This document shows positions 998 through 40,100 of a DNA stretch of 44,477 nucleotides, piece by piece; position 1 is the first letter of the stretch; each line of letters starts with the position of its first letter. The notes beneath the pieces were generated by a model. That model did not search any database. It worked only from the letters and a program-made list of their open reading frames with translations, and was not told where the DNA came from. The DNA comes from a phage, in NCBI GenBank assembly GCA_029889005.1, contig GCA_029889005.1_4349.1. One strand, 5' to 3'. The translations under genes were made by a program, and so were the position numbers.

Positions 998-3565
998 TTA
1001 ATTAAAACCATTGCTGAATCCGTCGGAGAAACCGCTGCCGTATGGCGCGACGCCGTCGTATTTATAGAATCCGTCGTCATAGTTGTAGCCAGTAATCTTA
1101 ACCGTGCGGTCGTCGCCGGGGTCGATTGAAGAAACAACTATCTTCTGAGCATTATGCCTTGCTTCGTTGCCGAATGAAAACTCAGTTTTCAGCGCACTAT
1201 TCCCTGTGTAGATTGCTTCCTCCGGCGCAGAGAGCATAATCACCTCGCGGTCGTGGTTTCCTTTGATAACAGAAATACTCTGCACGGAGCCATCGCGCTT
1301 CTTGAGGATGATGGAGTGGTCATCGCCGGGGGTAAACGTAACCGGCTGTGACAGTGTCAGCGTAAGCCCATTAACGGCAACAACATAGCCATCCTGCGGC
1401 GCGATACGCGAGCCTTTAACGACACTGATTACGCCGCCCGGTGTAGCGAGTGCCCCCTCTTCGGTAGCTTCGAACTCTACGACAACTTTACTTAACGCAT
1501 TGCGCTGATAGCGACGCCACGCCAGCCAGTACGCCTGCTGATAGTTGCGCACGCCTTTCGATTCGTATTCCTCAGTGTTTGCACCGAGTTCTTCCGGGAT
1601 ATAAATAGTTTCCTGTACGTTTGTATCCGGGTCGATGTACGAGAACGCCAGGCTATCGTAGGTAGTAGAATCGTTGAATGTGCGCGTCCATTTCTCTGTA
1701 CCGGTAGTTTTACTGCGGTGGGTGAACACCATTTCAGGCCCTGCAACCGGACGGTCGAAACGCAGCATAATGTCTGCGCCTTTACGGTACGCAGTACAAA
1801 ACACGGCTTCGGCTATAGTCTGAACGATGTCTTGCATGGTTGTGTCGTAGTCGTCGAATGTGTAGCAGAACTGCCCGGCTAATTCACTGTCAAAATACGA
1901 CTCAATTTCTTCCTGCACGGCAAGTAACTTGTCCATATTTGCCGTTGTCAGTTCCAGATTACCCACCACAGGGTCACGCGCCAGCCTGATTAGCGACTGC
2001 ACGGCCTGAGTGTTCGGTGTCATTACCGTATCGAATACGCCGTTACCTAAGTATTTGTAGCACATCTCGGTAGCAATCATGCGCAGTTCCGGTTCTGACA
2101 CCTCGGCTGCACGTGGGGTTTGTTTACGAGCACAGTGCACCGTAGTGCGGTTGCCGTAGTGCGGTGTTGTGTCCAGAGACTGTCCGTACAGGTTAGTGAA
2201 AGTAACCTCGTCGCTAACAGTACCCTCAAAATCTTTATCAGTATCGGAAACACGGCGCATACGGGCGCGGAATCTGGAAGCGGTAGGCAAGCTTCCGTAT
2301 AGGGTAATACCAGTGTAATCGGTGTTTCTCCCTGTAACAGTGCCTTGCACGGTGAATATGCCACCAACGGGCTGTTTCAATTCGTCCACCATCTGGTATT
2401 GCAGTTCCACCGTAACGGAGGCGCGGTTATAATCGCCGTTATATTTATACATGCCGTTGCTGGCGGCGACATTGGCTACAACACGGTTGACCGTACCGCG
2501 GGTGATGTACGCCCATTCAGAGAGGGAAGCCGCGTAAGTGTCCGCCGGACCTATGAGATGGTTACCCTCTTCACCTATAAACCATACAGATGTTCCTAGC
2601 TGGTTCCATATTGATTGATTTGTACTGACGTCCACAATAAGGGTCGTTTCACTAACAGAAAGAACCGTGTACCTCCCGTCCAGGTTAACCTCATTACCCA
2701 AAGACCCTGGGGTTGTATCTGCATATACGTTATCGAAGTATGCCAGGTCCCCGACCGCCAAAAACTCATCGAAACCAGCGTCATCGCCTACTACAACGCC
2801 GGTTGTTCCCTGCCGCTGGACAGTGTAGTCCTGCACGTCTATAGCGATATCATTAGGGGCGGGAAGAACAGCGCCATCGACATCGGCGTTTTTAAATGTA
2901 ACGTACAATTTCTGGTCTATAGGGTCGCCGATATGCAATTGTGGTGTGCTGGTGTTATTCGGCGAAGTGTAAGGAGAATACACCGTCACCGACGAGCCAG
3001 TTATCTCGCTGATTCGGGTATCTGCCTCAGTTACACCGTCTTCCTCAATATGCAGATACCCTCGACCGGCGTCATAGTACGCATATTCAATAAGCGCCCC
3101 CGTGGCGTTAAACACCTTATACGTCTGCATCAGGTCATTGGGTATAGTCTGCACTGTCCCGCAGATGTCATAAGAACGTTCATAAGGACGTGGCTTGTTC
3201 GAGCGGTCAGTAAGACTGTTGTTAGGCGACGTAGCCTGATTGTTGGTAGCGGAATAATTAGCGTTAGCTGCTGTGTTTAGCCCGAACAATTTGGCAATTG
3301 GCTTAAGGATGAAACTGAATACACTACCGATAGCGTCGCCGATACCACCGCCTGCACCCTCGATAATGTGGTACACGGCGTCCTCGTCTTTGAGCGCATT
3401 GAAGTCGTCTGTTACATCTGTATCATCGCCAATCTCACCGAGATAGACGCGCACAGGCACGCCGTAGGGAATACGGTTAACGACAAACTCCATCGGCATC
3501 CCGACGTGTTTTGTACGGTCGAAAGCGCCTTCAGCGTTTCGCGTGTAGTGCAGGATTATCGCCAA
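998..3565 (-). CDS. Large tail fibre / host-specificity (J-like) protein
   Basis: 855 aa ORF, TTG start with GGAG upstream, between distal tail genes and tailspike; call by size and position only. Confidence 0.5.
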   Translation of the reverse strand: MAIILHYTRNAEGAFDRTKHVGMPMEFVVNRIPYGVPVRVYLGEIGDDTDVTDDFNALKDEDAVYHIIEGAGGGIGDAIGSVFSFILKPIAKLFGLNTAANANYSATNNQATSPNNSLTDRSNKPRPYERSYDICGTVQTIPNDLMQTYKVFNATGALIEYAYYDAGRGYLHIEEDGVTEADTRISEITGSSVTVYSPYTSPNNTSTPQLHIGDPIDQKLYVTFKNADVDGAVLPAPNDIAIDVQDYTVQRQGTTGVVVGDDAGFDEFLAVGDLAYFDNVYADTTPGSLGNEVNLDGRYTVLSVSETTLIVDVSTNQSIWNQLGTSVWFIGEEGNHLIGPADTYAASLSEWAYITRGTVNRVVANVAASNGMYKYNGDYNRASVTVELQYQMVDELKQPVGGIFTVQGTVTGRNTDYTGITLYGSLPTASRFRARMRRVSDTDKDFEGTVSDEVTFTNLYGQSLDTTPHYGNRTTVHCARKQTPRAAEVSEPELRMIATEMCYKYLGNGVFDTVMTPNTQAVQSLIRLARDPVVGNLELTTANMDKLLAVQEEIESYFDSELAGQFCYTFDDYDTTMQDIVQTIAEAVFCTAYRKGADIMLRFDRPVAGPEMVFTHRSKTTGTEKWTRTFNDSTTYDSLAFSYIDPDTNVQETIYIPEELGANTEEYESKGVRNYQQAYWLAWRRYQRNALSKVVVEFEATEEGALATPGGVISVVKGSRIAPQDGYVVAVNGLTLTLSQPVTFTPGDDHSIILKKRDGSVQSISVIKGNHDREVIMLSAPEEAIYTGNSALKTEFSFGNEARHNAQKIVVSSIDPGDDRTVKITGYNYDDGFYKYDGVAPYGSGFSDGFSNGFN

Positions 3566-3921
3566 AATTCAATCTCCGTGTACGTGTCTCCGAGGTCCAC
3601 CAGCCTGTCAAGCCGTACCTGACGGGATGCAAGCTCGCAATGACTCACCATCCCGTCGAAGTAAACTCCAGCGTGCCACACGATACGACCCCCGCGGCGA
3701 TAACCCATAAGCACCGCGCAGAAGTTTTCAGGCTTATCAATTTTTGTAAGCCCCTTCGTGTCACGGTGGCCTTCGTCAAACGCTTCGTTAATTGCCGTTG
3801 GGCTTGTAACGTCGAACGCAGGGGTTTCTAACCCGGCATCCGCGCGGACAATGCGCACGTGATGCCAGCAATTGCGCTTGCGAAAGTCGTAAGGTATGCC
3901 CGTGTAGTCGTTAATATTCAT
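3556..3921 (-). CDS. Tail-associated NlpC/P60-like protein (K-like)
   Basis: 121 aa; candidate Cys/His catalytic residues (NCWHH ... WHAGVY ... SH); position between minor tail genes and fibre. Confidence 0.4.
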   Translation of the reverse strand: MNINDYTGIPYDFRKRNCWHHVRIVRADAGLETPAFDVTSPTAINEAFDEGHRDTKGLTKIDKPENFCAVLMGYRRGGRIVWHAGVYFDGMVSHCELASRQVRLDRLVDLGDTYTEIEFWR

Positions 3922-4448
3922 GTGGTCAACAGGCCGCGTAATAACGGTATCTCTTTAGGTGTCATCAGTATACCAGTGCTTCGCTGGTTCATCATAGGTG
4001 TACCGACATCCGCGGAGAACTCGCCCTTCTCCTGGTTGATGGCCTGTAACTCGTACACGACAGGACCGTCAGCCGGATAAGACAGGTCTGTGCTGACATA
4101 ACGACGGAAGACGAACTTAGGCAACTCAGTATTGCTCATCGGGATTTTATCCATCTCATCATCCAGTTGATTGAGGATATCCGGTAAAGTAAACGTCGTA
4201 GTCTGGTCCATATCACTGTTGTTAGCCGCTCCCGACGCCTCCATCGGGGTTGGCTCGAATGTTATTGTTTCGCCTGTCTCCAGTGTTGCCGTAAGTTCCT
4301 GTAGCCCGCGCACAAGATAGTACGTCTTCGACAGCAACGGGTGGCTGATTTGCAACGTGACGTAGTCCATCTCGCCGTCGGGATTTGAGGCCAGCTTACG
4401 GCGATAGGCGGCTTCTACTGATTCCTGACTCATTGCATAGGGTCCCAA
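3918..4448 (-). CDS. Minor tail protein
   Basis: 176 aa ORF coupled by overlapping stop/start within the tail module; position only. Confidence 0.4.
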   Translation of the reverse strand: MGPYAMSQESVEAAYRRKLASNPDGEMDYVTLQISHPLLSKTYYLVRGLQELTATLETGETITFEPTPMEASGAANNSDMDQTTTFTLPDILNQLDDEMDKIPMSNTELPKFVFRRYVSTDLSYPADGPVVYELQAINQEKGEFSADVGTPMMNQRSTGILMTPKEIPLLRGLLTT

Positions 4449-4930
4449 ATTCGTGGAAACGATGATTGTGCGGTCCCGTAGGCTTTAAGGAAACATCCCA
4501 GCCCGTCGCCATAACAACCATACAAATCAGGCAGATTGTTAATCAGACACTGGTTCTCGAGGTCCTGGAACGGTGATTTCTCAGCGGTTGCCGTGAAAGT
4601 AATTGTCCAGTTAATCCCGTCTTCGGTGGACTCCGCGATGGTTGACGTGATAGTTACCTGATAATCCTCGATACCCATGCCGAAGTCATGCGCCATCCAG
4701 AAACTTGACGCACCGCCGTCTACTTTTTCGAGGAACGACAGAAACGCCTGTCGCCCCATTGCGGATGTAATGAGGGTTACGCTCACCGGGAACACGTCGT
4801 AATACGTGTCACGGCCCTGACGCACCCCGCCACCGGCTAAATCAACACTCCAGACGTTGTTACGTCTGGTCATTGAGTAGCCTTTTGATACGATGGGCTT
4901 AAGGCTACGTGGGAAATATAAGTCAGTCAT
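4430..4930 (-). CDS. Minor tail protein
   Basis: 166 aa ORF starting at the tape-measure stop; position only. Confidence 0.4.
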   Translation of the reverse strand: MTDLYFPRSLKPIVSKGYSMTRRNNVWSVDLAGGGVRQGRDTYYDVFPVSVTLITSAMGRQAFLSFLEKVDGGASSFWMAHDFGMGIEDYQVTITSTIAESTEDGINWTITFTATAEKSPFQDLENQCLINNLPDLYGCYGDGLGCFLKAYGTAQSSFPRIWDPMQ

Positions 4931-6933
4931 TATTTGAACCCCGGCGCATTTCTTGTGGCCTTGCGGGCCTTGCTAATCTTACTGTTGCTGTTCCGCAAAG
5001 ATGCCGCAACTTGCTCTTCTATGATGATGCGTAGACGGCCTTCATCATCCTGTTCAGTGGATACGTTGCCGATTTGAGAACTCGTGTTGTTTACGATAGT
5101 AACATTAGATGGCCCACTATTTCCGCTATTATTGCTATTTAACTGTTGTCGTGTTTGACTTGCATTTACCGCCCTGCCAGAACCCACCATCTTGATAATC
5201 TCAGGGCCGCGTTCACCAACCAGATAGCTACCACCAGCGTTCATTTGTCCGCCCTGTTCACGCGCGCCGCTAATCTTGGCGATGTTCGCCACCCCTGCCG
5301 CGACAGCCAGACCCGCGGCAACTGGGGCGAGTGCCGGACCGACAATAGGAATAGCAGCAGTTGATTTATAGGCTTCGATAGCAGCCGTGTAAGTGGCAAT
5401 AGTCGCTTGCGTTATGGCGAACGCTTTGTACGCAGCGGACGTCTCCCCTAGTGCGGATTTAGCATCCGCTGCCATGCTGCCGAATGCGTCGGCGGTGGCG
5501 TTGGCCTGTGCAATATTGCTCTGTTCGTTCAGGTTACGCACCGCATTAGCGTATTCTTCTTCACTGATTAGTTTCTGTTTAAGGAAATCGTCCAGTTGCT
5601 TAAGTTTGGCGTCATTCTGCCGTTGGATTTCCTCAAACTCTGTGCCACCCAGCGCCTGTAGTTTCTCCAGATATGCATCAGCATTGTTATACAGTGCATC
5701 TCGTTGCGCCTGAAACTCAGCCATGATGTCACTTTTCGACTTCTCATAGTCGGCGTCGCTTACAAGTTGCTTGTCGTGGAACTCCTGTAACTTAGCCAGT
5801 TTCTGTTTCTCTTTAGCGTCTATCCGTTCTAACTCTGTTCCGGTGTTTGTGTCTATTTGAGCTATAAACTGGTCTGCTGCTTTCTGTGCGCTTTCCTGCG
5901 CGCGAGCGTCGGCACGGGCTTGGGCATCTGCGCGTTTCTTAGCTGCGGCAGCGATACGATTCTGCCTGTCGATTTCCTTCTGTGCCCTGTCTGCCTTATC
6001 CTTTTCGTATGTCTTCTCGGATTGCTCTACCCCTTTCCGCTCGGCTGCGCGGGTCTTTTCCTCCACACCAAGGTAGTTAAGTTCATTTCGCAGTTTATTT
6101 ATTTCCATCTGCGCTTCTGGCGTTTTGGCCTTTATGCCGTCTAGGTAGGCGACCAGCCCCTCTCGAGCGCCAGGAACCCCGGCTGCGATTGCTTTCTGAG
6201 CAACTTCAATATTGCGTAACTCTTTGGCGGTCAACCCCGCAGCTTCCGCAGCAGATTCGTACTGGAAAGCCACGGCCCCGGCAGCGTTCCCGCCTTGGGC
6301 TATCTGGGACGCGGCAAGGTTGGTAGTCAACTTCTGAAACAGAGACTGGGCTTTCGTTACCTTATCGATAGCTTCAACAATCTTATCCGCGGTGGAGTTA
6401 GCCTGTACGGCGGTTGCCTCTAGTGCCTTATTAAGAAATGCCATCTTCTCCGCTGTTGTCGCCCCGACAGCGTCCAGTTTTTCCAGTGCGTCATTCATAT
6501 CATACACACCGGGTGTGGCCTCATTAAGAGCGTCATCGAGGAACTTAGTAGCTTCCTCCAGTTGTTTAGCGGTATCCGTTGAGTTACTCAAAGACGCGTA
6601 CAGCGCGCCGCCGATTACGGTGGCGATAGTCAATACCGTACCCGCAATTGGATTGAATGCAGACACTAACTGACTACCTTGTTGCGTGAAAGCCGTGAGG
6701 GCGGACTGCCCCCCTTGGATTTGCACGATAAAGTCCTGTACCTGATACCCAGCGTTACCTATTGACGCCCGCATTGCGTTCATCTTCGGTGTTGCCGCGG
6801 TGGTGGTGTCCGTTAGTTTCTTCGTACTGGAATCAGCTTTCCCGGCAGAACTACTAAGGTTATCTAACTGCTTTGCTGCTTGCTCCGCTCCAGTTGCCTG
6901 GACTCGTACCATTAAACTCGCGGTATCAGCCAT
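4930..6933 (-). CDS. Tail tape measure protein
   Basis: 667 aa, Ala/Gln/Lys-rich coiled-coil composition with hydrophobic Gly/Ala-rich C-terminal segment; directly downstream of chaperone pair. Confidence 0.8.
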   Translation of the reverse strand: MADTASLMVRVQATGAEQAAKQLDNLSSSAGKADSSTKKLTDTTTAATPKMNAMRASIGNAGYQVQDFIVQIQGGQSALTAFTQQGSQLVSAFNPIAGTVLTIATVIGGALYASLSNSTDTAKQLEEATKFLDDALNEATPGVYDMNDALEKLDAVGATTAEKMAFLNKALEATAVQANSTADKIVEAIDKVTKAQSLFQKLTTNLAASQIAQGGNAAGAVAFQYESAAEAAGLTAKELRNIEVAQKAIAAGVPGAREGLVAYLDGIKAKTPEAQMEINKLRNELNYLGVEEKTRAAERKGVEQSEKTYEKDKADRAQKEIDRQNRIAAAAKKRADAQARADARAQESAQKAADQFIAQIDTNTGTELERIDAKEKQKLAKLQEFHDKQLVSDADYEKSKSDIMAEFQAQRDALYNNADAYLEKLQALGGTEFEEIQRQNDAKLKQLDDFLKQKLISEEEYANAVRNLNEQSNIAQANATADAFGSMAADAKSALGETSAAYKAFAITQATIATYTAAIEAYKSTAAIPIVGPALAPVAAGLAVAAGVANIAKISGAREQGGQMNAGGSYLVGERGPEIIKMVGSGRAVNASQTRQQLNSNNSGNSGPSNVTIVNNTSSQIGNVSTEQDDEGRLRIIIEEQVAASLRNSNSKISKARKATRNAPGFK

Positions 6934-6934
6934 T

Positions 6935-7312
6935 CTAATCGTCCTCGTTACGGCCTTCGAACAGTGCGTCGAGGCCCATTATTAAGTCTACCTCAAGCAA
7001 CGAGAACGGCTGTTTATGCAACTCTGCGTACGCTGTAAGGTGGTGATATTGGAGCATTTCCCTTGGTATTAGCACATTATTGCGACTTACAAACTTCAAT
7101 GCGTAGTATTTATCCATTATTTTCATCATATCACTCGGGCATTCCGGCGGGGTTTCCTCCGGCTCCTTCGGTACAGGCAACCCCATAGCCGCCATAGCAG
7201 CCTTGTGCCCGTCGGCGATGGAGTCGAACTCACGTCTCCTTTGCCGTATAACCCAGCGATACCTAGCATATTCGTAAAGCGCTTCTACTTTACAGATAAA
7301 GCTTTGCGGCTC
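6935..7312 (-). CDS. Tail assembly chaperone, frameshift-extension (T-like) frame
   Basis: Frame is -1 relative to 7285..7701 and stays open ~39 codons upstream of first ATG (7195) with no ATG/GTG/TTG, overlapping the G-like ORF end; ends at tape-measure start. Confidence 0.45.
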   Translation of the reverse strand, partial: EPQSFICKVEALYEYARYRWVIRQRRREFDSIADGHKAAMAAMGLPVPKEPEETPPECPSDMMKIMDKYYALKFVSRNNVLIPREMLQYHHLTAYAELHKQPFSLLEVDLIMGLDALFEGRNEDD

Positions 7313-7701
7313 TCAGCATGGTGTTGAGCGACAGCCCCTCCCAACCCTTTATACTCCTTCAACAGCTTGACCAACGCTTTCTTAGTGAACTTCTCCTCGA
7401 AGGACCACCCTACAACAACAACGGCAGCAAGTGCATCGTTAAGTTTAGCCAATTCACTGTTTAATTCTGTGTTATAGCGCGCCCAGTCCCCTTTCTCGCG
7501 GCACTCCGCGTCGAGGGGTTTCAGGTGGTCAAGGATGTCGCGGTAAGCGGAGATAAAATCCTTAGCTGCTGCGATTGAGTCGTCGCAGTCCGGCCCCATC
7601 ACCTGCAACCACTCCCCTGAGTCACTGCCGTCCGGTAGTAGGATAGGCATCTTAGTTCCCGCAGCGTGGCGGGACGCGAAATAAAAATCAGAAAGTTTCA
7701 T
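7285..7701 (-). CDS. Tail assembly chaperone (G-like)
   Basis: 138 aa acidic ORF immediately upstream of the T-frame ORF and tape measure. Confidence 0.65.
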   Translation of the reverse strand: MKLSDFYFASRHAAGTKMPILLPDGSDSGEWLQVMGPDCDDSIAAAKDFISAYRDILDHLKPLDAECREKGDWARYNTELNSELAKLNDALAAVVVVGWSFEEKFTKKALVKLLKEYKGLGGAVAQHHAESRKALSVK

Positions 7702-7809
7702 TCTTTAATCCTTTGGTTAAGAGGTTGTTGGTTAAAGAGAAATGCACCAGGCGGTAACCAACCGCTTTTCGTGCGCGACACTAGGTGCAAAATTATTCTA
7801 ACACACTAC

Positions 7810-7838
7810 TTGCACACCCCAATATAATAGGGTACTAT
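7810..7838 (+). promoter_or_regulatory. Sigma70-like promoter, class A (TTGCAC-N17-TACTAT) with AATAG-N4-CTATT palindrome
   Basis: Hexamers with 17 bp spacer; ~35 bp motif recurs at 17957, 28540(-), 29928(-); downstream ATG 7879. Confidence 0.5.
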
Positions 7839-7878
7839 TCACTTACACCAACGTTATTAACTTAAATAAGGAATTAAA

Positions 7879-8205
7879 ATGCGTAAATTAATCATAGCCC
7901 TTGGTCTTATTTCTTTTTGCGCGGTAGGGTCCCAGTGTGAGCAAGTATATAGTGAAACCCCTTTAGTAACTTCCGGGACGCTTGATTCAGCCCCTCCGGC
8001 TGCCGTTAGTGCGTTTAAAACCGCTGCTATTCGCGAATGTAATGCTGCCGTGCGGGCTGGCAGGTCTGGCCTGGGTCTTGAATTGATGACATCCCTTGTT
8101 GTTGAGTCTGTAGATGTTAACAGCCCTACTTTCAGCAGCCTACTGTTAGCCACCCGCCTGCAAATGGTAATGACTGGGTGGGCAATAGGCGCAGAAAGTA
8201 AATAG
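7879..8205 (+). CDS. Small secreted protein (signal peptide)
   Basis: AGGA RBS; N-terminal MRKLIIALGLISFCAVGS hydrophobic signal-like segment; preferred over overlapping antisense ORF 7857..8153. Confidence 0.5.
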   Translation: MRKLIIALGLISFCAVGSQCEQVYSETPLVTSGTLDSAPPAAVSAFKTAAIRECNAAVRAGRSGLGLELMTSLVVESVDVNSPTFSSLLLATRLQMVMTGWAIGAESK

Positions 8206-8269: not shown

Positions 8270-9400
8270 ATGGCCCGGAAGAAAATAACCGACGAACAGT
8301 TGCAGGAAGAATTGAACGCCGGTATGAAGAATGTAGATATCGCCCGTAAATACGGCATCTCAGACCGCGTAATTCGTATCCGTAAAGCGAAGCTGGCTAA
8401 GAAAGGCGTGGGCCACGGGCGCGACGTTAGCCACCTTGTGCCAGACGGCTACAAGATTAAAGGAACGTCGTCCCTGGTGGACGAGTTCGGCAACACTAAG
8501 TTGCAATGGGTTAAGACCGACGCTGATGCCGAACGTCAGGTTGAATTGATGAAAGCCGTAATAGAGGGCATGAAGTCAGAGATTACGCCCGTTGCGCCTG
8601 TTAAACCGGCACGAGCCAAACGTGACGATAAACTACTCAATCTTTACACGGTATCTGATTTCCATCTCGGTATGCTGGCATGGGCCGATGAGAGCGGCGA
8701 CGACTGGGACATGAAGATTGCAGAAGACCTGTTCTCTCGGTGGTTCGACGCGGCGTTTCAGAAAGCACCGGATGCAGGAACAGGAGTTATTAACCTGCTT
8801 GGGGACTTCGCACACTTCGATAGTCTTGATGCCGTTACCCCCGAGTCGCGCCATGTATTAGATGCGGATACTCGCTATCAGAAACTGGTACGTTACATGA
8901 TTCGTATGGTCCGCCGTGTTGTTGATATGGCGCTGGTTAAGCATCACACAGTAAAACTTTTAATCGTTCAAGGTAACCACGACCCTGTTGGCTCCGTATG
9001 GCTTGCCGAAATGTTCACGGTTTTATACTCAAACGACAGCCGAGTGATTGTTGATACGTCGCCGGATGTTTACAAGATGGTGCAACACGGCAAAACGACG
9101 CTGTTCTTCCATCACGGGCATAAAGCACGATTCGACGCTATCGAACCGGTTATGATTGCCAAGTTCCGTAAAGCGTTCGGCGAGAGTGTTTACAGCTACG
9201 CCCACGTAGGCCATCTGCACCACCAGAAGATTGTAGAAAGCCGTAACATGATTGTTGAGCAACACCGCACCTTAGCGGCTAAAGACGCCTACGCCTCTCG
9301 CGGCGGATGGATGTCGGGCCGCAGTGCAAATGTAATTACTTATAGCGCCGAATATGGCGAGGTCGCACGTTTAACTATTTCACCGGAGATGCTGGGATGA
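8270..9400 (+). CDS. Calcineurin-like metallophosphoesterase with N-terminal HTH-like region
   Basis: Motifs DFHLG, GDFAHFD, GNHD, HHGH, GHLHH typical of metallophosphoesterases. Confidence 0.7.
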   Translation: MARKKITDEQLQEELNAGMKNVDIARKYGISDRVIRIRKAKLAKKGVGHGRDVSHLVPDGYKIKGTSSLVDEFGNTKLQWVKTDADAERQVELMKAVIEGMKSEITPVAPVKPARAKRDDKLLNLYTVSDFHLGMLAWADESGDDWDMKIAEDLFSRWFDAAFQKAPDAGTGVINLLGDFAHFDSLDAVTPESRHVLDADTRYQKLVRYMIRMVRRVVDMALVKHHTVKLLIVQGNHDPVGSVWLAEMFTVLYSNDSRVIVDTSPDVYKMVQHGKTTLFFHHGHKARFDAIEPVMIAKFRKAFGESVYSYAHVGHLHHQKIVESRNMIVEQHRTLAAKDAYASRGGWMSGRSANVITYSAEYGEVARLTISPEMLG

Positions 9401-9885
9401 AAGATATTGTAATTTTCGATTTAGACGGGACATTGGCTGACGGTACCCATCGCTTACACCTGTTACCAAAAGATAACTACGGAGAAACGTGGGCGTGGAA
9501 GCCATTTAACATGGCCTGCAAAGATGACGCTCCGATATACGACAATATCCATTTGTGTAGCGTACTGTGGCATTCCGGACTTACTATAATTATCCTTACC
9601 GGGCGAAGTGATGACGCTGAGGAGGAGACTCGCGAATGGTTACGAGAGAATAACGTTAGGTTTGACACGCTAATCATGCGCAGCAAACACGACAACAGAA
9701 AAGACATCGTAATTAAAGAAGAGGTGTTGCGTGCTTTCGGACTGGAAAGAATCTTGTGTGCGTTCGACGACTCTCCAGCGGTAATAAAGCATTTCCGTGA
9801 CCTCGGCATAACCGCACACGCAGTTACCGAATACGACTGTAACGGGAACTCTACACACTTAAAACCACACGGGAGCGATAAATAA
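9397..9885 (+). CDS. HAD-superfamily phosphatase
   Basis: N-terminal FDLDGTL motif I, downstream LTGR and FDDSP motifs; start overlaps upstream stop. Confidence 0.65.
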   Translation: MKDIVIFDLDGTLADGTHRLHLLPKDNYGETWAWKPFNMACKDDAPIYDNIHLCSVLWHSGLTIIILTGRSDDAEEETREWLRENNVRFDTLIMRSKHDNRKDIVIKEEVLRAFGLERILCAFDDSPAVIKHFRDLGITAHAVTEYDCNGNSTHLKPHGSDK

Positions 9886-10439
9886 TGGCTAAGGTAATTA
9901 TTCTTAATGGCCCTGCGGGTTGCGGGAAAGACACGCTTGCTATGGCGCTGGTAGAAATGGGCTTTGCGAAAGGAACTACCAGTTTCAAGAATCCGATGTT
10001 CAATATTGCTATGGCTGCGTTAGGCCAGGATGCTTACCGCGAGTTTCTCGATGGCTACGACGACCGGGCGCGGAAAGAAAAGCCAGAGGGTTTCCTTAAC
10101 GGGTTGTCTCGGCGTCAGTTCATGATTGCCATTTCCGAGCAATTCATTAAACCGGTGTTCGGTGATGATTATTTCGGTAAGTATCTTGCCGGAAACTTGC
10201 CCGACGGCGACGAAGTTTTTGTGGTGTCTGATGGCGGGTTCGCCAGCGAAGTAGCCCCTATCGTTGCCGTGGGGCATGACGTGCGAATCGTCCGCCTCCA
10301 TCGTGACGGCTATACGTTCATCTGCGATAGCCGTGGCTATCTGTACGATGTTAGTGGTGTAAAAGATTACGACACCTACATCATACCGGGTGACGTTAAA
10401 TCGAACGTTATAGACATTGCTTTAAAATTAGGTTTGTAA
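9885..10439 (+). CDS. P-loop nucleotide/nucleoside monophosphate kinase-like protein
   Basis: Walker A GPAGCGKDT near N-terminus; start overlaps HAD gene stop. Confidence 0.65.
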   Translation: MAKVIILNGPAGCGKDTLAMALVEMGFAKGTTSFKNPMFNIAMAALGQDAYREFLDGYDDRARKEKPEGFLNGLSRRQFMIAISEQFIKPVFGDDYFGKYLAGNLPDGDEVFVVSDGGFASEVAPIVAVGHDVRIVRLHRDGYTFICDSRGYLYDVSGVKDYDTYIIPGDVKSNVIDIALKLGL

Positions 10440-10440
10440 G

Positions 10441-10470
10441 AAAAAGGCCCCGAAAGGGGCCTTAGTTTTA
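10441..10470. terminator. Bidirectional intrinsic terminator
   Basis: AGGCCCC-GAAA-GGGGCCT hairpin flanked by A-run and T-run between convergent gene ends. Confidence 0.7.
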
Positions 10471-11640
10471 TGCGTAGGTGATACGTTGAATTACGATAGA
10501 CGACTGGTACTGATTGCCGGTAGCCTGGCCTTCAATGGACTGAGTGATTGACTCAGGCCCACCAATCTCAGGTGTAACCGCCGTAAGCTCTGCACGTTTC
10601 AAACTGAAAGACATAGCCCCGTTTACCCCTGCCAGAATAGAGTTAATCTCTACCTGCTGCTCGTTGATAAACTTCTGAATCATCGCCATGTCGTACAGCT
10701 TGCCAGAGATAGAGAATGTGTTAGCTGCGCGTCCACGTTCTACAAACGCTACGTTAGTGTTGCCGAGTTCGAACTGCGCGGACGCGCTGTTGTCGTTGGT
10801 GATGGTGAGAGTATCGCAACGCAACGGCGTGGAGCCATCGAACACCGACACATCTACCGACGAGAACGGCTCATCGGTGAACGTAACCCGAGAGAAATCA
10901 GAGCCAGACGGCGGCGTGGTAAGAATCTCCTGACTCAGGCCGATGAACGGGAAACTACCGGTTACCATCGCGTTTACGGCCTGTTCAATGGTGAAACCGG
11001 AGATTTCAACGCCTTTGGTCAGCATGTACGCGCCCGGGTTACCACACTGGCCCTTGAACCACGTCAGGATGGAGAACGTCTTACACGCGTTACCGGTTTC
11101 CAGCTTGTCGCCAGTTTTTGCGTCAGTGGTTACTGTCTCTGCTGTCAGCGTGTGCTGAATACCTGCGCCCGTAACTACCAGAGCGGAAACCGCGGTCACG
11201 ATAAACGGTTTTGCGTTGTCGCCGGTTAAGTCGGTGAACGCAATAAGGTCGCCAACTTTTACACCGTCAGTAATGAAGCTATCGGCAGCGCGGGTGAATG
11301 TTTTACCTGCTGGGGCGACCGTAATTTCGGCGCCAGTAATCTCTACCCCAGCTCGCCACGTAGAAGTCATCGCTCCCGCAAGGAAATCATCCTGGCTACG
11401 AGAGCTAAGTTCGATGGCGTACTCCCCGCTAACCTGTTTGTTACCGGTTCGGATGGATGTAGTTTCACGGCTGCCGTCCAGTTCGTTGGAAGTCAGTGCA
11501 TCGCGGGTTACAGCGGGAACGCCGCCCGTGTTACGCAACGGCGACCATACCGGGTTAGTCGGTGTTACGCCAGGGGTATTTTCCGCCACATAGAATTGCG
11601 CGGTATTCGCGCCCTTAAAAGGAGTTGTAGCCATATTCAC
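10468..11640 (-). CDS. Major tail (tube) protein, putative
   Basis: 390 aa ORF last in the neck/tail run before the chaperone genes; position and size only. Confidence 0.5.
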   Translation of the reverse strand: MNMATTPFKGANTAQFYVAENTPGVTPTNPVWSPLRNTGGVPAVTRDALTSNELDGSRETTSIRTGNKQVSGEYAIELSSRSQDDFLAGAMTSTWRAGVEITGAEITVAPAGKTFTRAADSFITDGVKVGDLIAFTDLTGDNAKPFIVTAVSALVVTGAGIQHTLTAETVTTDAKTGDKLETGNACKTFSILTWFKGQCGNPGAYMLTKGVEISGFTIEQAVNAMVTGSFPFIGLSQEILTTPPSGSDFSRVTFTDEPFSSVDVSVFDGSTPLRCDTLTITNDNSASAQFELGNTNVAFVERGRAANTFSISGKLYDMAMIQKFINEQQVEINSILAGVNGAMSFSLKRAELTAVTPEIGGPESITQSIEGQATGNQYQSSIVIQRITYA

Positions 11641-13933: not shown

Positions 13934-14626
13934 TCACCCCTTCTTACAGTTATCAAAGTGCCACCTCTTTAGAAGAGATAGCGCCCCTTCGGTTCCGCAA
14001 TGTGGGCATACCCCGCGCGGGCGTTTCATTCCAGTAAGTTTATCTGAAATTTTCTTGACAGTCTCGCCCTTTAACGTATGGCCCTTCTTAAAACTTCCGG
14101 AGTTAGGTTTTCTATTAACCTTGCCAACGATTCTATTTGGGTCCGCGAACTGGCATTTCTTGCAGCAATATTTACGCGCTCGTGATTTAAAACGGTAGGG
14201 GATCGGCTGGTCGCATGTTACACATCGTTGTGGGTTTGCCATGTAATGCTCTATTCTGGCTTTTCTACTTGCAGTTTCCCCGGTAGCAATTCCTTTATTC
14301 CACGCCTTTTGCCCTAGATGTGCTTGTCTGAGATTTTCTATACGTTTATCAGAAAATTTAACACCAGTATTCAACCTGGACATCTCTATAGCCCAAGCCT
14401 CTTTCGCCAACTTAAAGGAATGTGAGTTAACTTTTGACCTTTGATTGTTTTTAGGGTTAATACACATAACCCTCCAGGCGAAAGCTAGTTCTTTAGTCCC
14501 GTGTATCTTATAGAGAAGCCAATGCGCAATAAAATGCTGTCTAGCGCTCAAAGATACAATATTGTCAAAAGTATCTCCACCACCCATGCATTTCGGGTCT
14601 ATGTGATGTTTTTTTGGTATACCCAC
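13934..14626 (-). CDS. Free-standing HNH homing endonuclease
   Basis: N-terminal HHIDPKCMGGGDTFDNIVSLSARQHFIAHW (HNH-like), several CxxC pairs and repeated K/G-rich DNA-binding-like motifs; GTG start; locally AT-rich versus flanks. Confidence 0.8.
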   Translation of the reverse strand: MGIPKKHHIDPKCMGGGDTFDNIVSLSARQHFIAHWLLYKIHGTKELAFAWRVMCINPKNNQRSKVNSHSFKLAKEAWAIEMSRLNTGVKFSDKRIENLRQAHLGQKAWNKGIATGETASRKARIEHYMANPQRCVTCDQPIPYRFKSRARKYCCKKCQFADPNRIVGKVNRKPNSGSFKKGHTLKGETVKKISDKLTGMKRPRGVCPHCGTEGALSLLKRWHFDNCKKG

Positions 14627-14739
14627 TAAACGGATTGATTTTTGCGTTCGATATTAACTGTTCATAGATTTTGGCGTAGTTCATGATTCACCCTTTTCAA
14701 TGGAGGATGGATTCATTATACCAACTACGCCAGATATTA

Positions 14740-14919
14740 CTATTCCTCAGACTTACGGCGACGACGCTTAGTGCCACCGCCGTTGTTGTGCGCTTCTTCG
14801 TTGTCCGGTTGGGTCGCAACCAGTTCATCCGCTTCTACAACACCGCGCACGGGTATCACCTGACCATCAACCATATCAACGTGGGTGTACTTTTCGCGGA
14901 TTACATAATTATCTGCCAT
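14740..14919 (-). CDS. Small acidic protein (59 aa), hypothetical
   Basis: ATG with AGGAAAGG 5 nt upstream; below ORF-track size cutoff; acidic with RRRRK tail. Confidence 0.35.
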   Translation of the reverse strand: MADNYVIREKYTHVDMVDGQVIPVRGVVEADELVATQPDNEEAHNNGGGTKRRRRKSEE

Positions 14920-14955
14920 GACCTTTCCTTATTACGGCCCCGAAGGGCCGCTGTA

Positions 14956-15177
14956 TTAAGACACAGTTGCTACAGTGCTGCTGGAGATAATATTACCATA
15001 CGCATCGTGAACAACCACTTTATACGTACCGGAGTCGGCGGCAGTGGTCGATGCTTTAGCATAGGTAGCTGCGGTAGCCCCGGCGATGGCGTTGTTATTC
15101 TTATACCACTGGTAAGAATATGGCTCCAGACCACCGGCTACCGTTACGGTCAGCGTCATAGTTTCACCTGTGGTCAC
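14956..15177 (-). CDS. Small Ig-like domain protein (possible capsid decoration)
   Basis: YQWYKNN ... SGTYKVVV pattern of bacterial Ig-like domains; internal ATG ~15159 has AGGTGA RBS and may be true start. Confidence 0.5.
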   Translation of the reverse strand: MTTGETMTLTVTVAGGLEPYSYQWYKNNNAIAGATAATYAKASTTAADSGTYKVVVHDAYGNIISSSTVATVS

Positions 15178-15261
15178 TGCGGTAGTAGCCGCCAGCGCGG
15201 AAGAGAAAGACGCCGGTGATACGTCGCTTCAATACGTCTACCATTTAGGAATCCTCTTAGT

Positions 15262-17890: not shown

Positions 17891-17956
17891 CTATTCGAAT
17901 AGTTTATTCCAATATTTACAATTTAGTGGAATAAATGGAATAGTCTGTATCTGTGC

Positions 17957-17985
17957 TTGCGCGCACCAATATAATAGGGTACTAT
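17957..17985 (+). promoter_or_regulatory. Sigma70-like promoter, class A (TTGCGC-N17-TACTAT)
   Basis: Same ~35 bp motif as 7810..7838; downstream ATG 18014; opposite strand also reads TTGATA-N17-TATATT (possible divergent promoter). Confidence 0.5.
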
Positions 17986-18013
17986 TCAGATATCAAAACG
18001 AGAGGAGAGTGAT

Positions 18014-19901: not shown

Positions 19902-20555
19902 ATGAAACTGCAAACATTAGAGTTCCCTTATGGAGAAATCACTTTTGACCGTGAAAACTTTATTAACGTAAACGAGCTGGTTGACCAGATGAACCGTTGG
20001 CGTTTAGACAACGGCATGGGGGCCAGAGAGCTTCGCCAGGTCATGGCAACGGATGGCTTCAAGATTTTCAAGGAGGAATGCGAAAAACAACTCGGAATCG
20101 AGAATGCCATAAGGGCGACGAAAGGCCGAAACGGTCGCACCTTTGCATGTCTCCATCTGGCAGTATATATTGCTGAGCAATACAGCGCCTATTTCCATTT
20201 CCTCGTTATCGACCGCTTTATCACACAACGGCAGGTAGAACTACGAAACATTGGCGCGGTGAGCTTTGTCGAGCTTAACGCTGCCGTTAGTCGAATGATC
20301 GAGCGCACGGAGGGAAGAATTGGCCACAGTGGACACTTCATACAGGTGGCTAAAGCGGTAAAGGAATCCGTAGATATCCGCGACGTAACGGGTTTCGATA
20401 CATGGGACTCTCAGGATGCGAAGACCAATCAGTTGCGAAGTGACATCCAGAAAGCTCTGGTGACGCTTCTTGACATGGAGGCCGTTAATGCATGGGGTGA
20501 ACTGAAAGAGGCGATACCTCGGGTTGTGCGTAAATGTGCGGCTAATATACGTTAA
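19902..20555 (+). CDS. KilA-N domain DNA-binding protein
   Basis: KGRNGRTFACLHLAVYIAEQYSAYFHFLV matches KilA-N/APSES core pattern; antisense to flanking structural genes. Confidence 0.6.
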   Translation: MKLQTLEFPYGEITFDRENFINVNELVDQMNRWRLDNGMGARELRQVMATDGFKIFKEECEKQLGIENAIRATKGRNGRTFACLHLAVYIAEQYSAYFHFLVIDRFITQRQVELRNIGAVSFVELNAAVSRMIERTEGRIGHSGHFIQVAKAVKESVDIRDVTGFDTWDSQDAKTNQLRSDIQKALVTLLDMEAVNAWGELKEAIPRVVRKCAANIR

Positions 20556-28509: not shown

Positions 28510-28539
28510 CTTCTGTCTCTCCTCTCGTCTGTGTAAATG

Positions 28540-28568
28540 AATAGTAGCCTATTCTATCTTAGTGTGCA
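28540..28568 (-). promoter_or_regulatory. Sigma70-like promoter, class A (TTGCAC-N17-TACTAT)
   Basis: Same motif as 7810..7838 in minus orientation, ~30 nt upstream of 28509 start. Confidence 0.5.
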
Positions 28569-28727
28569 AGTAAATTTTATTGGTGTTTGTATTGTTGCAT
28601 TTCCTGCAATAGTCGCTTCGATTGTTGCGTTTGATGAAAGTGTCGCCTTTTGACGACACTAAGTTAAAGTTGTACGCTGCTGTGTAGCAGCGTAAGTCAC
28701 TCAGTAAAATCCCAAACTATTGACCTG

Positions 28728-29893: not shown

Positions 29894-29927
29894 TTCTAAA
29901 TTCCTTATGTCTCGTTCCGATAAGTGA

Positions 29928-29956
29928 ATAGTATCCTATTATGTTGGGGTGTGCAA
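29928..29956 (-). promoter_or_regulatory. Sigma70-like promoter, class A (TTGCAC-N17-TACTAT)
   Basis: Motif CTTGCACACCCCAACATAATAGGATACTATTCAC in minus orientation ~35 nt upstream of 29893 start. Confidence 0.5.
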
Positions 29957-30132
29957 GATAATAGTTACGTTGCCGTTGTGATTCTTTTGTTTCTTAAAAG
30001 AGTACGCAACGCAGTGGGTGGGCTAACGCCCACCCCAGCGGAGTGAAGTACTCTCTACCTTGCTTACGGCAACTATAGAAACTTTTAATTATCAGTGACT
30101 TGAGTATTTAGGCGGGATTAACAATAGACTTT

Positions 30133-33750: not shown

Positions 33751-33814
33751 GTCAATTACTCCTTAGTCAGTTGATATGTGAATAGTACCATATTAATTAT
33801 TTTAGAAAAGCCCA

Positions 33815-37137: not shown

Positions 37138-40100
37138 ATGAGTTACCTGTTCTTAGACTTTGAAACATTCTCAGAAGCCGATTTGAAGAAAGTCGGTTCT
37201 TACGCTTACGCCGAACACCCGTCAACCGAAGTGCTTATCTGTACATATGCTTTTGACGACGAACCTGTGCGGGTATGGGATTGCACCGACGGCAGCGACA
37301 TGCCGGGGGATTTACACCGCGCACTGCGCCGCCTTGTTAAGCCCAACAGCCGCATCAAGATGGTGTGGCACAACGGTGGACTTTTCGATCGCCTAATCAT
37401 GAAACACTGCTGGGACTTTGATATTCCGGTAAGTAACACCATTGATACTATGATTTGGGCGTTCCGTCACGCGCTGCCGGGTTCTCTTGATGCGCTGTGC
37501 GAAGTGCTGGGCGTGTCTGCAGACAACGCGAAAGATAAACGCGGAAAGGCTCTGATTAAGCGTTTCTCTAAACCGACGCCGAAGAACTACAAAATCCGCC
37601 GCTACACCGCAGAAACTCACCCTGACGAGTGGGCGATGTTCATCAGGTACGCCGTGAGCGACATCACTGCGATGCGTGAAGTCTTCCATAAGCTGCCGCG
37701 TTGGGGTAACTCCGAGTTCGAAGACCGTGTACTGGAACTTGACCAGTTAATCAACGACCGCGGATTTAAGGTTGACGTCGCACTGGCGGAAGCCGCGATT
37801 GAAGCCGTAGAGAAGCACAAGGCACAGTTACAGGAAGAAGCTCAACGTAAATACGGCGGCTCGCTTACCGGTAAAGACTTCCTTCCGATTCTGCGTGAAC
37901 TTGCGCCCGCGCACCGCATACACAATGCACAGAAGTCGACGCTTAACGACCTGTTGGCAGATGATGATTTACCGGACGACGCCCGGATGATTATCGAAAT
38001 GCGCCTCGGGGCCGCGTCAACAGCGTCCACGAAATATAACCCGCTGCTGTTAGGCCGCTCGTCGGACGACCGACGCCGCGGTTGTATCCAGTACGGCGGA
38101 GCCAAGCGTACATTACGATTTGCCGGTAAAGGCTTTCAGCCGCAGAACCTCGCGCGGGGGTACTATCACGATGATGAACTGGATAAAGGTATTTCAGCGT
38201 TACTTAAGGGCCGCGCGCATCGCCGTTTCGATGTCGCTAAGCTAACGGCATCGACGGTGCGTAGCTGCATTATCCCGGAAGCCGGAAAAAAGTTTGTCGT
38301 CGCCGATTACTCTAACGTTGAAGGTCGGGGGCTTGCGTGGCTGGCAGGCGAAGAAACCGCGCTCGATACATTCCGTGCGGGATTGGATATTTACTGCGTA
38401 ACAGCAGGTAAGATGTTCGGCATGGACCCTGATTACATCAAGAAAGAACGTAAAGACTTACGCCAGATTGGTAAAGCCTGTCTTCACCGCCATACCCAAG
38501 TTTTGACCGATGGCGGATTTAAGGATATTATGGCGGTCGCATCAACAGATAAAGTATGGAGTGGTGAAAAATGGGTGAATACAAAAGGCGCGCACCTTAT
38601 GGGGTGGAAACCGGTGATAAATGTGGACGGAGTGCTAATGACCGAAGACCACAAAATATTGACGCATTCCTGGAAGCAGGCAAAGCAACTCGTTTCAAAC
38701 AAATATATGATGGACCGCGCCCTGGAGATAGGTATGGACGCCTGGTTATCCTGCGCGAGTTACCAAAACGACAAGGTCATAGACAACTACTTGCTCAATG
38801 TGATTGCGGAGAGATTCCGGGGCGCGTCGGGTACGACAATGTTAGAAGGGGTAAAACCACTCAATGCAACCGCTGCGCACTTGAAGCAACAAAAAAATAT
38901 CGTAAACAGTATTTCTGCTACGAAGACGCAATGCCGGACGACGGGCACAGAGCGCGATTGCTCAACCGGTTATCTGCGGCAATATCGCGAACAACAAAAC
39001 CTAACGACAAAGGCTATAAAAACTATGGTGCCAGAGGGATTACCGTATGCGAAAAGTGGAAGGCCGATAGAAGGGCGTTTCTTCTCTATGTTCAAACTCT
39101 GGAAGGCTGGGATGACCCAAAACTCGAAATGGACAGAATCGACACAGACGGTAACTACGAACCTGGAAACATTCGGTTTGTCAGCCGTTCTGAAAACTGC
39201 CGTAACAGACGGCAAATACCTGAGCTTCAACGAAAGTATGATGCAGCCGTTGCCCGCATTGCTGAGCTTGAACGGGAAATTAACCTACTGCGAGCCGGTT
39301 TACGACCTGATTGATGTGGAAGACGGAAACCGTTTTCTTATAGCCTCCGACTCTGGCTTTCTTGTGGCGCATAACTGCGAACTTGGACTCGGCTACGCCG
39401 GGGGTGTCGGTGCTTTCGTTCAGTTCGCCAAGAACCTCGGCCTTGACCTTGTAGATATGGCAAAAACAATGGATGGGACTTTCCCTGACCACATCTGGGC
39501 CGCTACCGCGCGCGGGTACGAGTGGGCGCGTATTCAGGAAGCCAAGCGACCACCGCGTCCGGGTGAAAAGGATGACCGACCATCATATATTCTTGATAAG
39601 AAAGTCTGGCGTACATGCGACGCAATTAAGCGTATGTGGCGGGAGTCCCACCCGGAAACAGTAGCTTTCTGGCGTGATATTGAAGACGCAGCTATGGCAG
39701 CAATCCGTAATCCGGGGAAAGAGTTCACCGCTGGCCCTCGCGGGGTTAAGTTTTCTCGCAACGTAGAAACAGACAACAACGGCAACAAAGTCGCTGGTTG
39801 GTGGTTGCGCATGACGTTGCCGTCAGGTCGCGTTATGTCATACCCGGGCGTCGGGTTGAGCGTGTCAAAAGAGACAGACGAAGACGGAAAAGTTTCTACT
39901 AACGTGCGCATCAAGTATCAGGGTGAAAATCAGTTAACCAGGCAGTGGGGCTTCCAGTACACCTACTCCGGTAAACTGGTGGAAAACTGCACTCAGGCAC
40001 TGTGCCGTGACTTGCTGGCTAATGCGCTACTTAACGTTGAAGCAAACGGCTACCCGATTGTACTTCACGTACACGATGAGATTATCTGCGAGACACCAGA

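Follow-up and report, generated by a model that had tools for sequence, protein, structure and literature searches.

Three overlapping genes on the plus strand of a phage genome, at positions 8270 to 10439 of contig GCA_029889005.1_4349.1 (NCBI GenBank assembly GCA_029889005.1; the whole 44,477-nucleotide stretch is called the window below), encode a metallophosphoesterase, a HAD phosphatase and a P-loop kinase. We propose, with middling confidence, that they form a module for DNA breakdown and for the supply or adjustment of deoxynucleotide pools. This proposal is made because the kinase groups with proven deoxynucleoside monophosphate (dNMP) kinases, the phosphatase family includes the phage T5 enzyme Dmp, the metallophosphoesterase is of the T5 A1-type nuclease class, and a fully annotated relative, vB_Eco_K-02 (hereafter K-02), is annotated without any other nucleotide-metabolism gene or a ligase. 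An earlier note on this DNA had described a "three-enzyme module" and likened its kinase and phosphatase to a split polynucleotide kinase-phosphatase (Pnkp). Its three enzyme classes were right (metallophosphoesterase from the motifs of the first gene, HAD phosphatase from a PF25109 match at 3.3e-20 in the second, P-loop kinase from the sequence GPAGCGKDT in the third), and the nucleotide-salvage role that it had offered as the mundane alternative is the better supported, with the kinase in phrog_139 alongside T4 gp1 and T5 Dnk and the phosphatase in phrog_415 alongside T5 Dmp. The module itself consists of one constant gene, ORF1, and a replaceable two-gene cassette, ORF2 and ORF3 (ORF, open reading frame):

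8270–9400, plus strand: ORF1, 376 amino acids
9397–9885, plus strand: ORF2, 162 amino acids
9885–10439, plus strand: ORF3, 184 amino acids

The start of ORF2 overlaps the stop of ORF1 at the junction GGGATGAAA (ATGA), and the start of ORF3 overlaps the stop of ORF2 at AAATAATGG (TAATG). Strong PHROG matches (4.7e-163 for ORF1, 3e-64 for ORF2 and 6.6e-44 for ORF3) and homologues numbering hundreds to thousands mark the three as genuine genes and not chance ORFs. About 2.7 kb around the three-gene unit matches 318 GenBank phage records, headed by Escherichia phage vB_EcoS-22664BS2 (98% identical), with K1H, K1ind1, Golestan and records named Kagunavirus among the further top matches; judged by its sequence, the window belongs to a Kagunavirus-type siphophage of the Guernseyvirinae. 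We took the gene map from K-02, which is ~93.5% identical across the region.

Profile and structure comparison, the check that the earlier note had named for the Pnkp resemblance, gave a divided answer: Pnkp phosphatases are the best matches of ORF2, the T4 gp1 fold and phrog_139 are those of ORF3, and ORF1 has Mre11 and SbcD among its nearest folds. Single-sequence and profile searches of the PDB with ORF1 and ORF3 returned only helix-turn-helix (HTH) or P-loop matches, so structure prediction was needed for these two proteins. The AlphaFold2 (AF2) model of ORF3, built from a 33-sequence alignment, has a predicted local distance difference test (pLDDT) score of 94, and its nearest fold is that of the T4 gp1 dNMP kinase. 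The family assignment points the same way, phrog_139 matching ORF3 at 6.6e-44, T4 gp1 at 7e-66 and T5 Dnk at 1.4e-51. The Pfam family PF21448 (DNMK) is not reached by ORF3 and is reached by 2 of the 33 family members, at best with 1.8e-7. Comparisons by hhalign of the ORF3 family with the single sequences of T4 gp1, T5 Dnk and T4 Pnkp are dominated by the P-loop, and it is the aligned extents (26, 45 and 60 columns) that are informative: the alignment with T5 Dnk continues beyond the P-loop and takes in the SFxKPxF and (D/E)RxxKE motifs, whereas that with T4 Pnkp covers the P-loop only. ORF3 thus shares its fold with gp1 and its motifs with Dnk; D116, F119 and E122 of its SDGGFxxE sequence, which follows strand 4, are common to the TDVRFPNE sequence of T5 Dnk, and GKDT of the P-loop, D116 and E122 are conserved in the ORF3 family. 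Kinases like ORF3 are found in ~1,500 GenBank phage records.

ORF3 lacks a Pnkp-type (AAA_33-like) P-loop 5′-kinase domain, its similarity to the Pnkp kinase being confined to the P-loop. Hydroxyl-directed P-loop kinases such as T4 Pnkp carry a general base (Asp35) after strand 2, and the ORF3 family alignment contains no conserved acidic residue at that place. Fusions of a HAD domain to the kinase were also absent among 93 ORF3 homologues, which at 156–249 amino acids are too short for one and of which none has a HAD Pfam annotation. Record PV402688, in which "polynucleotide kinase" was the sole annotation under the match, was rejected as such a fusion, as it proved to be an unannotated kinase ORF beside a HAD gene.

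The phosphatase is the part of the Pnkp comparison that stood. ORF2 matches PF25109 (HAD_PNKP) and phrog_415 (3e-64), and in the PDB Pnkp1 (4xrp, 4e-6) and T4 Pnk (1ltq, 2e-3). Over the whole C-terminal DxDxT domain, the T4 Pnkp phosphatase can be aligned with the ORF2 family profile (hhalign E 2.6e-14, 128 columns; 26–31% identity), and the catalytic residues of T4 have their counterparts in D8, D10, T12, R19, R70, D99, K102, D124 and D125 of ORF2; in order, D8, D10, R19, R70, D99, K102 and D124/D125 correspond to D165, D167, R176, R213, D254, K258 and D277/D278 of T4, the residues reportedly essential for the T4 phosphatase in mutagenesis by the Shuman laboratory. The remainder of the comparison did not hold: T4 Pnkp is one polypeptide with the kinase first, whereas here phosphatase and kinase follow each other in two overlapping genes, the T4 kinase half is absent (ORF3, whose nearest fold is another one, aligns with it at the P-loop only), a loop of 15 residues after motif I is peculiar to ORF2, and no RNA ligase partner is annotated in K-02, so that RNA repair of the T4 kind is unlikely.

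The same catalytic residues are present in T5 Dmp, a 5′-dNMP phosphatase that tunes nucleotide pools (bioRxiv 10.64898/2026.04.02.716235; PMC12265719) and is described as a 5′-dNMP phosphatase in the T5 GenBank record as well. T5 Dmp falls in phrog_415 (3.6e-57) like ORF2 and retains D8, D10, T12, R19, R70, D99, D124 and D125, its KD pair lying one column off K102-D103 of ORF2; across ORF2, T5 Dmp and T4 Pnkp the invariant positions are D8, D10, T12, R19, R70, R95, D99, D103, K107 and D124/D125. Dmp and ORF2 also have in common a loop of ~15–20 residues after R19 (motif I) that is absent from T4 Pnkp, and hhalign aligns the two with E 1.2e-6 over 82 columns. Dmp differs from ORF2 in its length (244 amino acids), its long insertions, its lack of a Pfam match and its weak pairwise similarity (25 bits). 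On this sequence comparison, Pnkp-type residues do not separate a polynucleotide 3′-phosphatase from a mononucleotidase, and those of ORF2 are no argument for nucleic-acid ends, since T5 Dmp has them equally. Nor does membership of phrog_415 fix the substrate, since the T4 Pnkp phosphatase domain likewise matches it (1.9e-24). The extra loop of ORF2, placed where HAD enzymes have their cap, would lean toward small substrates.

ORF1 belongs to phrog_704, "DNA repair exonuclease" (4.7e-163), a family of 4586 clusters at 50% identity; in Pfam it gives Metallophos matches below threshold and a weak GerE-type HTH match at residues 14–45. It is laid out as an HTH at residues ~8–44, a linker of β-hairpin and helix, and a binuclear metallophosphoesterase domain at ~119–376, and its AF2 model (pLDDT 80.7) accordingly displays a three-helix N-terminal HTH, a β-hairpin with a helix, and the catalytic domain. 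An alignment of 39 diverse homologues (32–50% identity) has D130, H132, G178, D179, N236, H237, H282, G314 and H317 invariant and G235 and H315 nearly so, D238 being likewise invariant in the family alignment, so that all five metal-binding motifs (DxH, GD, GNH(D/E), H and GHxH) are present. This conservation argues that ORF1 is an active binuclear metallophosphoesterase, an enzyme rather than a regulator only. Its fold neighbours are Mre11 (13.1), SbcD (12.4) and PolD DP1 (12.2), closely accompanied by the MJ0936 phosphodiesterase (12.6) and LpxH (11.7). Because Mre11, SbcD and PolD DP1 are among them, the model looks like that of a DNA nuclease, and unlike the λ-phosphatase-like healing domain of bacterial Pnkp (kinase, phosphoesterase and ligase); in Clostridium thermocellum that phosphoesterase domain is of the λ-phosphatase clade (PMC2190708), and the ORF1 domain is not of this λ-phosphatase/PPP clade. 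No Rad50/SbcC-like gene lies adjacent to ORF1. A Foldseek search of viral structures with ORF1 gave many phage metallophosphoesterases without a name, as well as entries labelled "DNA polymerase II small subunit", and no named functional anchor. A second "exonuclease" of this phage (34913–36169), considered as a further metallophosphoesterase, was rejected, being a PD-(D/E)XK protein of the DUF2800 family.

The phage enzyme to which we compare ORF1 is T5 A1, a predicted metallophosphatase whose gene shares an operon with dmp. A1 is reported to be both required and sufficient for the degradation of host DNA, and its structural neighbours are double-strand-break-repair nucleases and polymerase proofreading subunits (bioRxiv 10.64898/2026.04.02.716235). 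ORF1 is likewise a phage metallophosphoesterase with the same classes of neighbours. A1 differs in having 556 amino acids and a separate DNA-binding protein, A2, where ORF1 has 376 and its own fused HTH, and in belonging to phrog_1745 rather than phrog_704; hhalign detected no homology between ORF1 and A2.

We then surveyed the surroundings of these genes from both ends. The survey based on ORF3 covered 80 viral loci, whose kinases form 34 groups at 60% identity, with neighbours identified by Pfam:

8 of 34 groups: Pnkp-type HAD phosphatase abutting the kinase upstream
11 of 34 groups: HTH-metallophosphoesterase upstream of the kinase
~7 of 34 groups: ATP-dependent DNA ligase abutting the kinase upstream
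~6 of 34 groups: dUTPase abutting the kinase downstream
many of the 34 groups: FEN exonuclease near the kinase

ORF3 homologues thus sit in DNA-metabolism clusters, beside FEN exonuclease, dUTPase and endonuclease VII. Unrelated phages repeatedly carry the nuclease, the phosphatase and the kinase as a group, in some cases joined by a DNA ligase. T1-like phages (Drexlerviridae) have a row "DNA repair exonuclease – PNK – dNMP kinase" (PNK, polynucleotide kinase), for which the authors suggest nucleotide supply (PMC13164509, 2026), and the trio is also present in the Autographiviridae phage LAh2 (genus Ahphunavirus), beside exonuclease, endonuclease and RNA polymerase genes. Both rows hold the same three families in the same order as here; they lie within or beside replication and lysis genes, whereas the module of the window is inverted inside the tail cluster, and in the Guernseyvirinae, set against these two, ORF2 and ORF3 are optional within the subfamily. 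In a further lineage, represented by three loci (L144, L147 and L149), endonuclease VII, metallophosphoesterase, HAD_PNKP phosphatase, kinase and DNA ligase follow each other as overlapping genes. The six-gene row of L147 (IMGVR_UViG_2974653390_000001, an unrelated 44.6-kb phage) occupies positions 2479–7252 and comprises, mostly abutting or overlapping, a 371-amino-acid protein of unknown function, endonuclease VII, an ORF1-like metallophosphoesterase, a HAD_PNKP phosphatase, an ORF3-like kinase and an ATP-dependent DNA ligase.

The survey based on ORF1 also covered 80 loci, and 38 Guernseyvirinae loci among them were assessable. ORF2 and ORF3 are carried by 13 of these 38. In locus L089, whose ORF1 is 98% identical, the slot that they fill in the window (9397–10439) is taken by a single ORF of 76 amino acids (5128–5358, plus strand; no Pfam match), and the swap leaves both the ATGA junction and the terminator unchanged. 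On these two grounds, ORF1 is the constant gene and ORF2 with ORF3 a swappable two-gene cassette.

A constant ORF1 followed by a slot for differing cargo would also fit a different view, in which ORF1 serves chiefly as a DNA-binding regulator, or as a nuclease that works on phage DNA in replication or recombination, and ORF2 and ORF3 are unrelated passengers on its transcript. The N-terminal HTH, the very large family (4586 clusters) and records that label ORF1 homologues transcriptional regulator or winged-HTH (wHTH) protein are consistent with this, but the catalytic motifs are invariant or nearly so, as expected of an enzyme and not of a regulator alone, and the same trio recurs in distant lineages. 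We regard this view as improbable.

In the pool-supply scheme that we favour, the unit, probably early and transcribed by host RNA polymerase, would be expressed from the strand opposite to the tail tube and tail chaperone genes, between which it lies. ORF1 would bind DNA through its N-terminal HTH and cut it with a two-metal, Mre11/SbcD-like centre, its target being most plausibly host DNA, as for T5 A1. ORF3 would use ATP to convert dNMPs to deoxynucleoside diphosphates (dNDPs), like T4 gp1 and T5 Dnk, and host nucleoside-diphosphate kinase would carry these on to the triphosphates (dNTPs). ORF2, with Asp8 as the nucleophile and an acyl-phosphate intermediate, would take phosphate off deoxynucleotides; its substrates could be 5′-dNMPs (as for T5 Dmp), 3′-dNMPs, or, as for the phosphatase of T4 Pnkp, the 3′-phosphate ends of degradation products, and its action would trim or rebalance the pool. 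What the analysis shows is the structure and coupling of the genes, their assignment to folds and families, the intact catalytic motifs, the recurrent synteny and the behaviour of ORF2 with ORF3 as a cassette; the substrates, the early timing, the choice of host DNA and the direction of nucleotide flux are what we infer. The K-02 annotation holds no ribonucleotide reductase, thymidylate synthase or ligase, nor any nucleotide-metabolism gene outside the module. Note that the arrangement differs from that of T5: there dmp is part of the pre-early region of first-step transfer and dnk is found ~22 kb into the genome, whereas ORF2 and ORF3 overlap.

Several observations weigh against this scheme. 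Two enzymes encoded by overlapping genes, one taking phosphate off dNMPs and the other adding it, would work against one another unless each had its own specificity. The two are gained and lost as a pair, and in the L144/L147/L149 lineage a DNA ligase stands directly 3′ of their homologues; each of these findings is no less compatible with end healing. Most related loci have ORF1 without the pair, so the three genes need not share one pathway. Overall, the T4 Pnkp phosphatase resembles ORF2 more closely than T5 Dmp does (hhalign, and 42 versus 25 bits in BLASTP). Between the sequences of ORF1 and T5 A1 there is no significant homology (17% probability in hhalign, confined to the GNHD-like motif), so that the analogy with A1 rests on fold class only. 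Finally, the ORF3 family alignment has an invariant glycine, Gly118, where T5 Dnk has arginine in TDVRF; T4 gp1, too, has arginine at this site in PDTRQDHE, a motif placed by eye because MAFFT misaligned it. This loss of the arginine of the D-x-R motif, which sets the ORF3 family apart from both dNMP kinases, is the reason why its acceptor site may be altered and may differ from theirs. Human phosphomevalonate kinase, too, has arginine at the D-x-R site, where the ORF3 family has glycine. The invariant R150 of the GDSR sequence in ORF3 might compensate for the lost arginine.

These points keep end healing alive, through the joint gain and loss of the pair, the ligase adjacency in some lineages and the lost kinase arginine. 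In such a split pathway, ORF2 would clear 3′-phosphates (or 2′,3′-cyclic phosphates) and ORF3 would phosphorylate the 5′-OH of broken DNA, less likely of RNA; ORF1 would trim or generate the ends, the LigA of the host (in other lineages, a ligase of the phage) could reseal them, and the kinase would be an enzyme of dNMP-kinase fold recruited to polynucleotides. The full set of T4 Pnkp phosphatase residues in ORF2, with Pnkp phosphatases as its best Pfam, PDB and hhalign matches, speaks for such a pathway, as do the overlap of ORF2 with ORF3 and their behaviour as one unit, the phosphatase abutting the kinase in 8 of the 34 groups, the ATP-dependent ligase in ~7, the row from endonuclease VII to ligase in one lineage, and an ORF3 family without the D-x-R arginine of T5 Dnk and T4 gp1; patchy occurrence in phages that are otherwise nearly the same is, moreover, a usual mark of counter-defence genes. 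Yet ORF3 has the fold and the PHROG of dNMP kinases, with Pnkp kinase similarity that stops at the P-loop and no conserved acidic residue after strand 2, and we know of no polynucleotide kinase with a dNMP-kinase fold. The residues and the extra loop of ORF2 recur in the mononucleotidase T5 Dmp, and K-02 has no annotated ligase, which would leave RNA repair in particular incomplete. Ligase adjacency is weak evidence in any case, as T7, too, has its ligase beside a nucleotide kinase (genes 1.3 and 1.7). On balance we think that split end healing is rather unlikely, if worth keeping in view. Its more specific form, in which ORF2 and ORF3 are a previously unrecognised end-healing pair, a mobile cassette against host-nuclease damage that is ligase-adjacent in some lineages, with the Gly118 kinase acting on 5′-OH DNA and the phosphatase on 3′-phosphates, appears to us unlikely.

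In a further reading, pool remodelling or counter-defence takes the place of salvage: ORF2 would destroy particular host deoxynucleotides while ORF3 pushed others forward, so as to set the ratios of dNTPs or to escape nucleotide-sensing or nucleotide-depleting defences, with ORF1 acting independently in replication, recombination or regulation. T5 Dmp is a precedent: it is reported to enhance virulence by optimising pools, and dmp mutations allow escape from the dTTP-sensing Clover defence (bioRxiv 10.64898/2026.04.02.716235; PMC12265719). The accessory nature of the cassette (13 of the 38 assessable loci), with ORF1 usually lacking it, agrees with such a role. On the other side, the metallophosphoesterase recurs beside phosphatase and kinase in Drexlerviridae, Ahphunavirus and others, which argues for a functional link with ORF1, and we hold this remodelling of pools or counter-defence to be distinctly unlikely. 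A role in DNA hypermodification, like that of a 5-hydroxymethyldeoxyuridine (5-hmdU) DNA kinase, was set aside, as K-02 is annotated without a dUMP hydroxymethylase or a thymidylate-synthase homologue.

The setting of the module within the window, and the elements that probably control it, are as follows:

7285–7701, minus strand: tail assembly chaperone (PF08748)
7809–7841, plus strand: promoter-like element of 33 nucleotides, CTTGCAC-N8-TATAATAGGGTACTATTCA, a conserved repeat
7879–8205, plus strand: ORF0, 108 amino acids, with a hydrophobic, signal-peptide-like N-terminus (MRKLIIALGLISFCAVG...), phrog_14165 (unknown function), 9.4e-36
10444–10463, scored as a terminator on both strands: bidirectional intrinsic-terminator-like hairpin, AAGGCCCC-GAAA-GGGGCCTT
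10468–11640, minus strand: tail tube protein (PF18906, 6.5e-38)
17956–17988 (plus strand), 28538–28570 (minus strand) and 29925–29957 (minus strand): near-identical copies of the promoter-like element
near 33782, 33826, 36366 and 40832 (−): weaker copies of the promoter-like element

The left flank holds, on the minus strand, the tail assembly chaperone, the partner downstream of it and the tape measure gene. The ORF coordinates, the overlapping junctions and the flanking tail genes agree with the earlier description of three coupled plus-strand genes inside a minus-strand tail cluster, and the bidirectional terminator given there as the end of the module is borne out by the hairpin at 10444–10463. 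This hairpin lies 4 nucleotides from the ORF3 stop and 4 from that of the tail tube gene, between converging stop codons; it has an 8-bp stem with 6 G-C pairs, a GAAA loop, an A-run upstream and a T-run downstream, and is the terminator that persists in L089, the relative without ORF2 and ORF3.

A 16-nucleotide core of the promoter-like element has 8 matches at ≤3 mismatches where 0.25 are expected, and each strong copy has a ribosome-binding site and an ATG 30–45 nucleotides downstream. The core lies ~200–400 bp upstream of ORF1, on the same strand, in 13 related Kagunavirus loci. Two minus-strand copies (~28.5 and ~29.9 kb) precede leftward small genes of unknown function, and the one at 29925–29957 stands just ahead of the turn of the genome to rightward replication genes. 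A simple σ70 scan did not report the element at 7809–7841. We predict that it is probably the main host-polymerase promoter class of this phage, its conserved spacer being possibly a regulator site; promoter function and early timing are what the position and recurrence of the element suggest. The transcription unit would then run from the element at 7809–7841 through ORF0, ORF1, ORF2 and ORF3 to the terminator, and would probably be transcribed by the host polymerase, early and independently of the surrounding tail genes.

This unit probably takes in ORF0 as a fourth gene, the first one 3′ of the element. ORF0 had no match in a Pfam search, and its slot is variable among relatives: the alignment with the window ends left of ~8240 in most related phages, and K-02 has a 63-amino-acid "superinfection immunity protein" at this position. 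ORF0 may be a moron or an exclusion gene.

The minus-strand genes past the tail tube (chaperone, tape measure and others) sit beyond the terminator and 2.2 kb of antisense sequence (10439–8270), so that late transcription has either to pass through the module on its antisense strand or to start again near 7702–7880, a stretch in which no clear minus-strand promoter was found.

All genes of the module are of known families, an ordinary set already annotated in hundreds of records, inconsistently: "polynucleotide kinase", "acid phosphatase", "ATPase" and "DNA repair exonuclease" stand side by side. Literature searches on the module in Kagunavirus, Jerseyvirus and T1 gave genome descriptions only, and the searchable literature yielded no experimental test of the rival annotations for any of the three gene families. 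What is new here is modest: the promoter element, the cassette behaviour, the comparison with T5 Dmp as a control, and the recurring synteny with or without ligase. Deciding between nucleotide feeding and end healing for the phosphatase-kinase pair would correct thousands of annotations and would show whether small siphophages without other nucleotide-metabolism genes recycle host DNA like T5 and T7. Natural near-isogenic phages with and without the ORF2-ORF3 cassette exist, so the question is directly testable.

Three other places in the window stand out. Another antisense insertion in the late cluster is an amidase-type lysis protein at 19902–20555 (plus strand; phrog_6095, 1.2e-120), between minus-strand head-morphogenesis and portal genes. 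A plus-strand ORF of 178 amino acids (14683–15219), with no PHROG or Pfam match, lies between minus-strand head and neck genes, and falls in the stretch with the lowest GC content in the window's left half (14001–15000, GC 0.44); it looks like a horizontally acquired gene. At 37138–40215 (plus strand), a family-A DNA polymerase ORF of 1025 amino acids is interrupted in frame: residues 1–448 and 821–1025 match DNA polymerase PHROGs and residues 465–837 match the endonuclease phrog_93 (2.7e-176), so that an intein, or a homing endonuclease inserted in frame, could account for the interruption.

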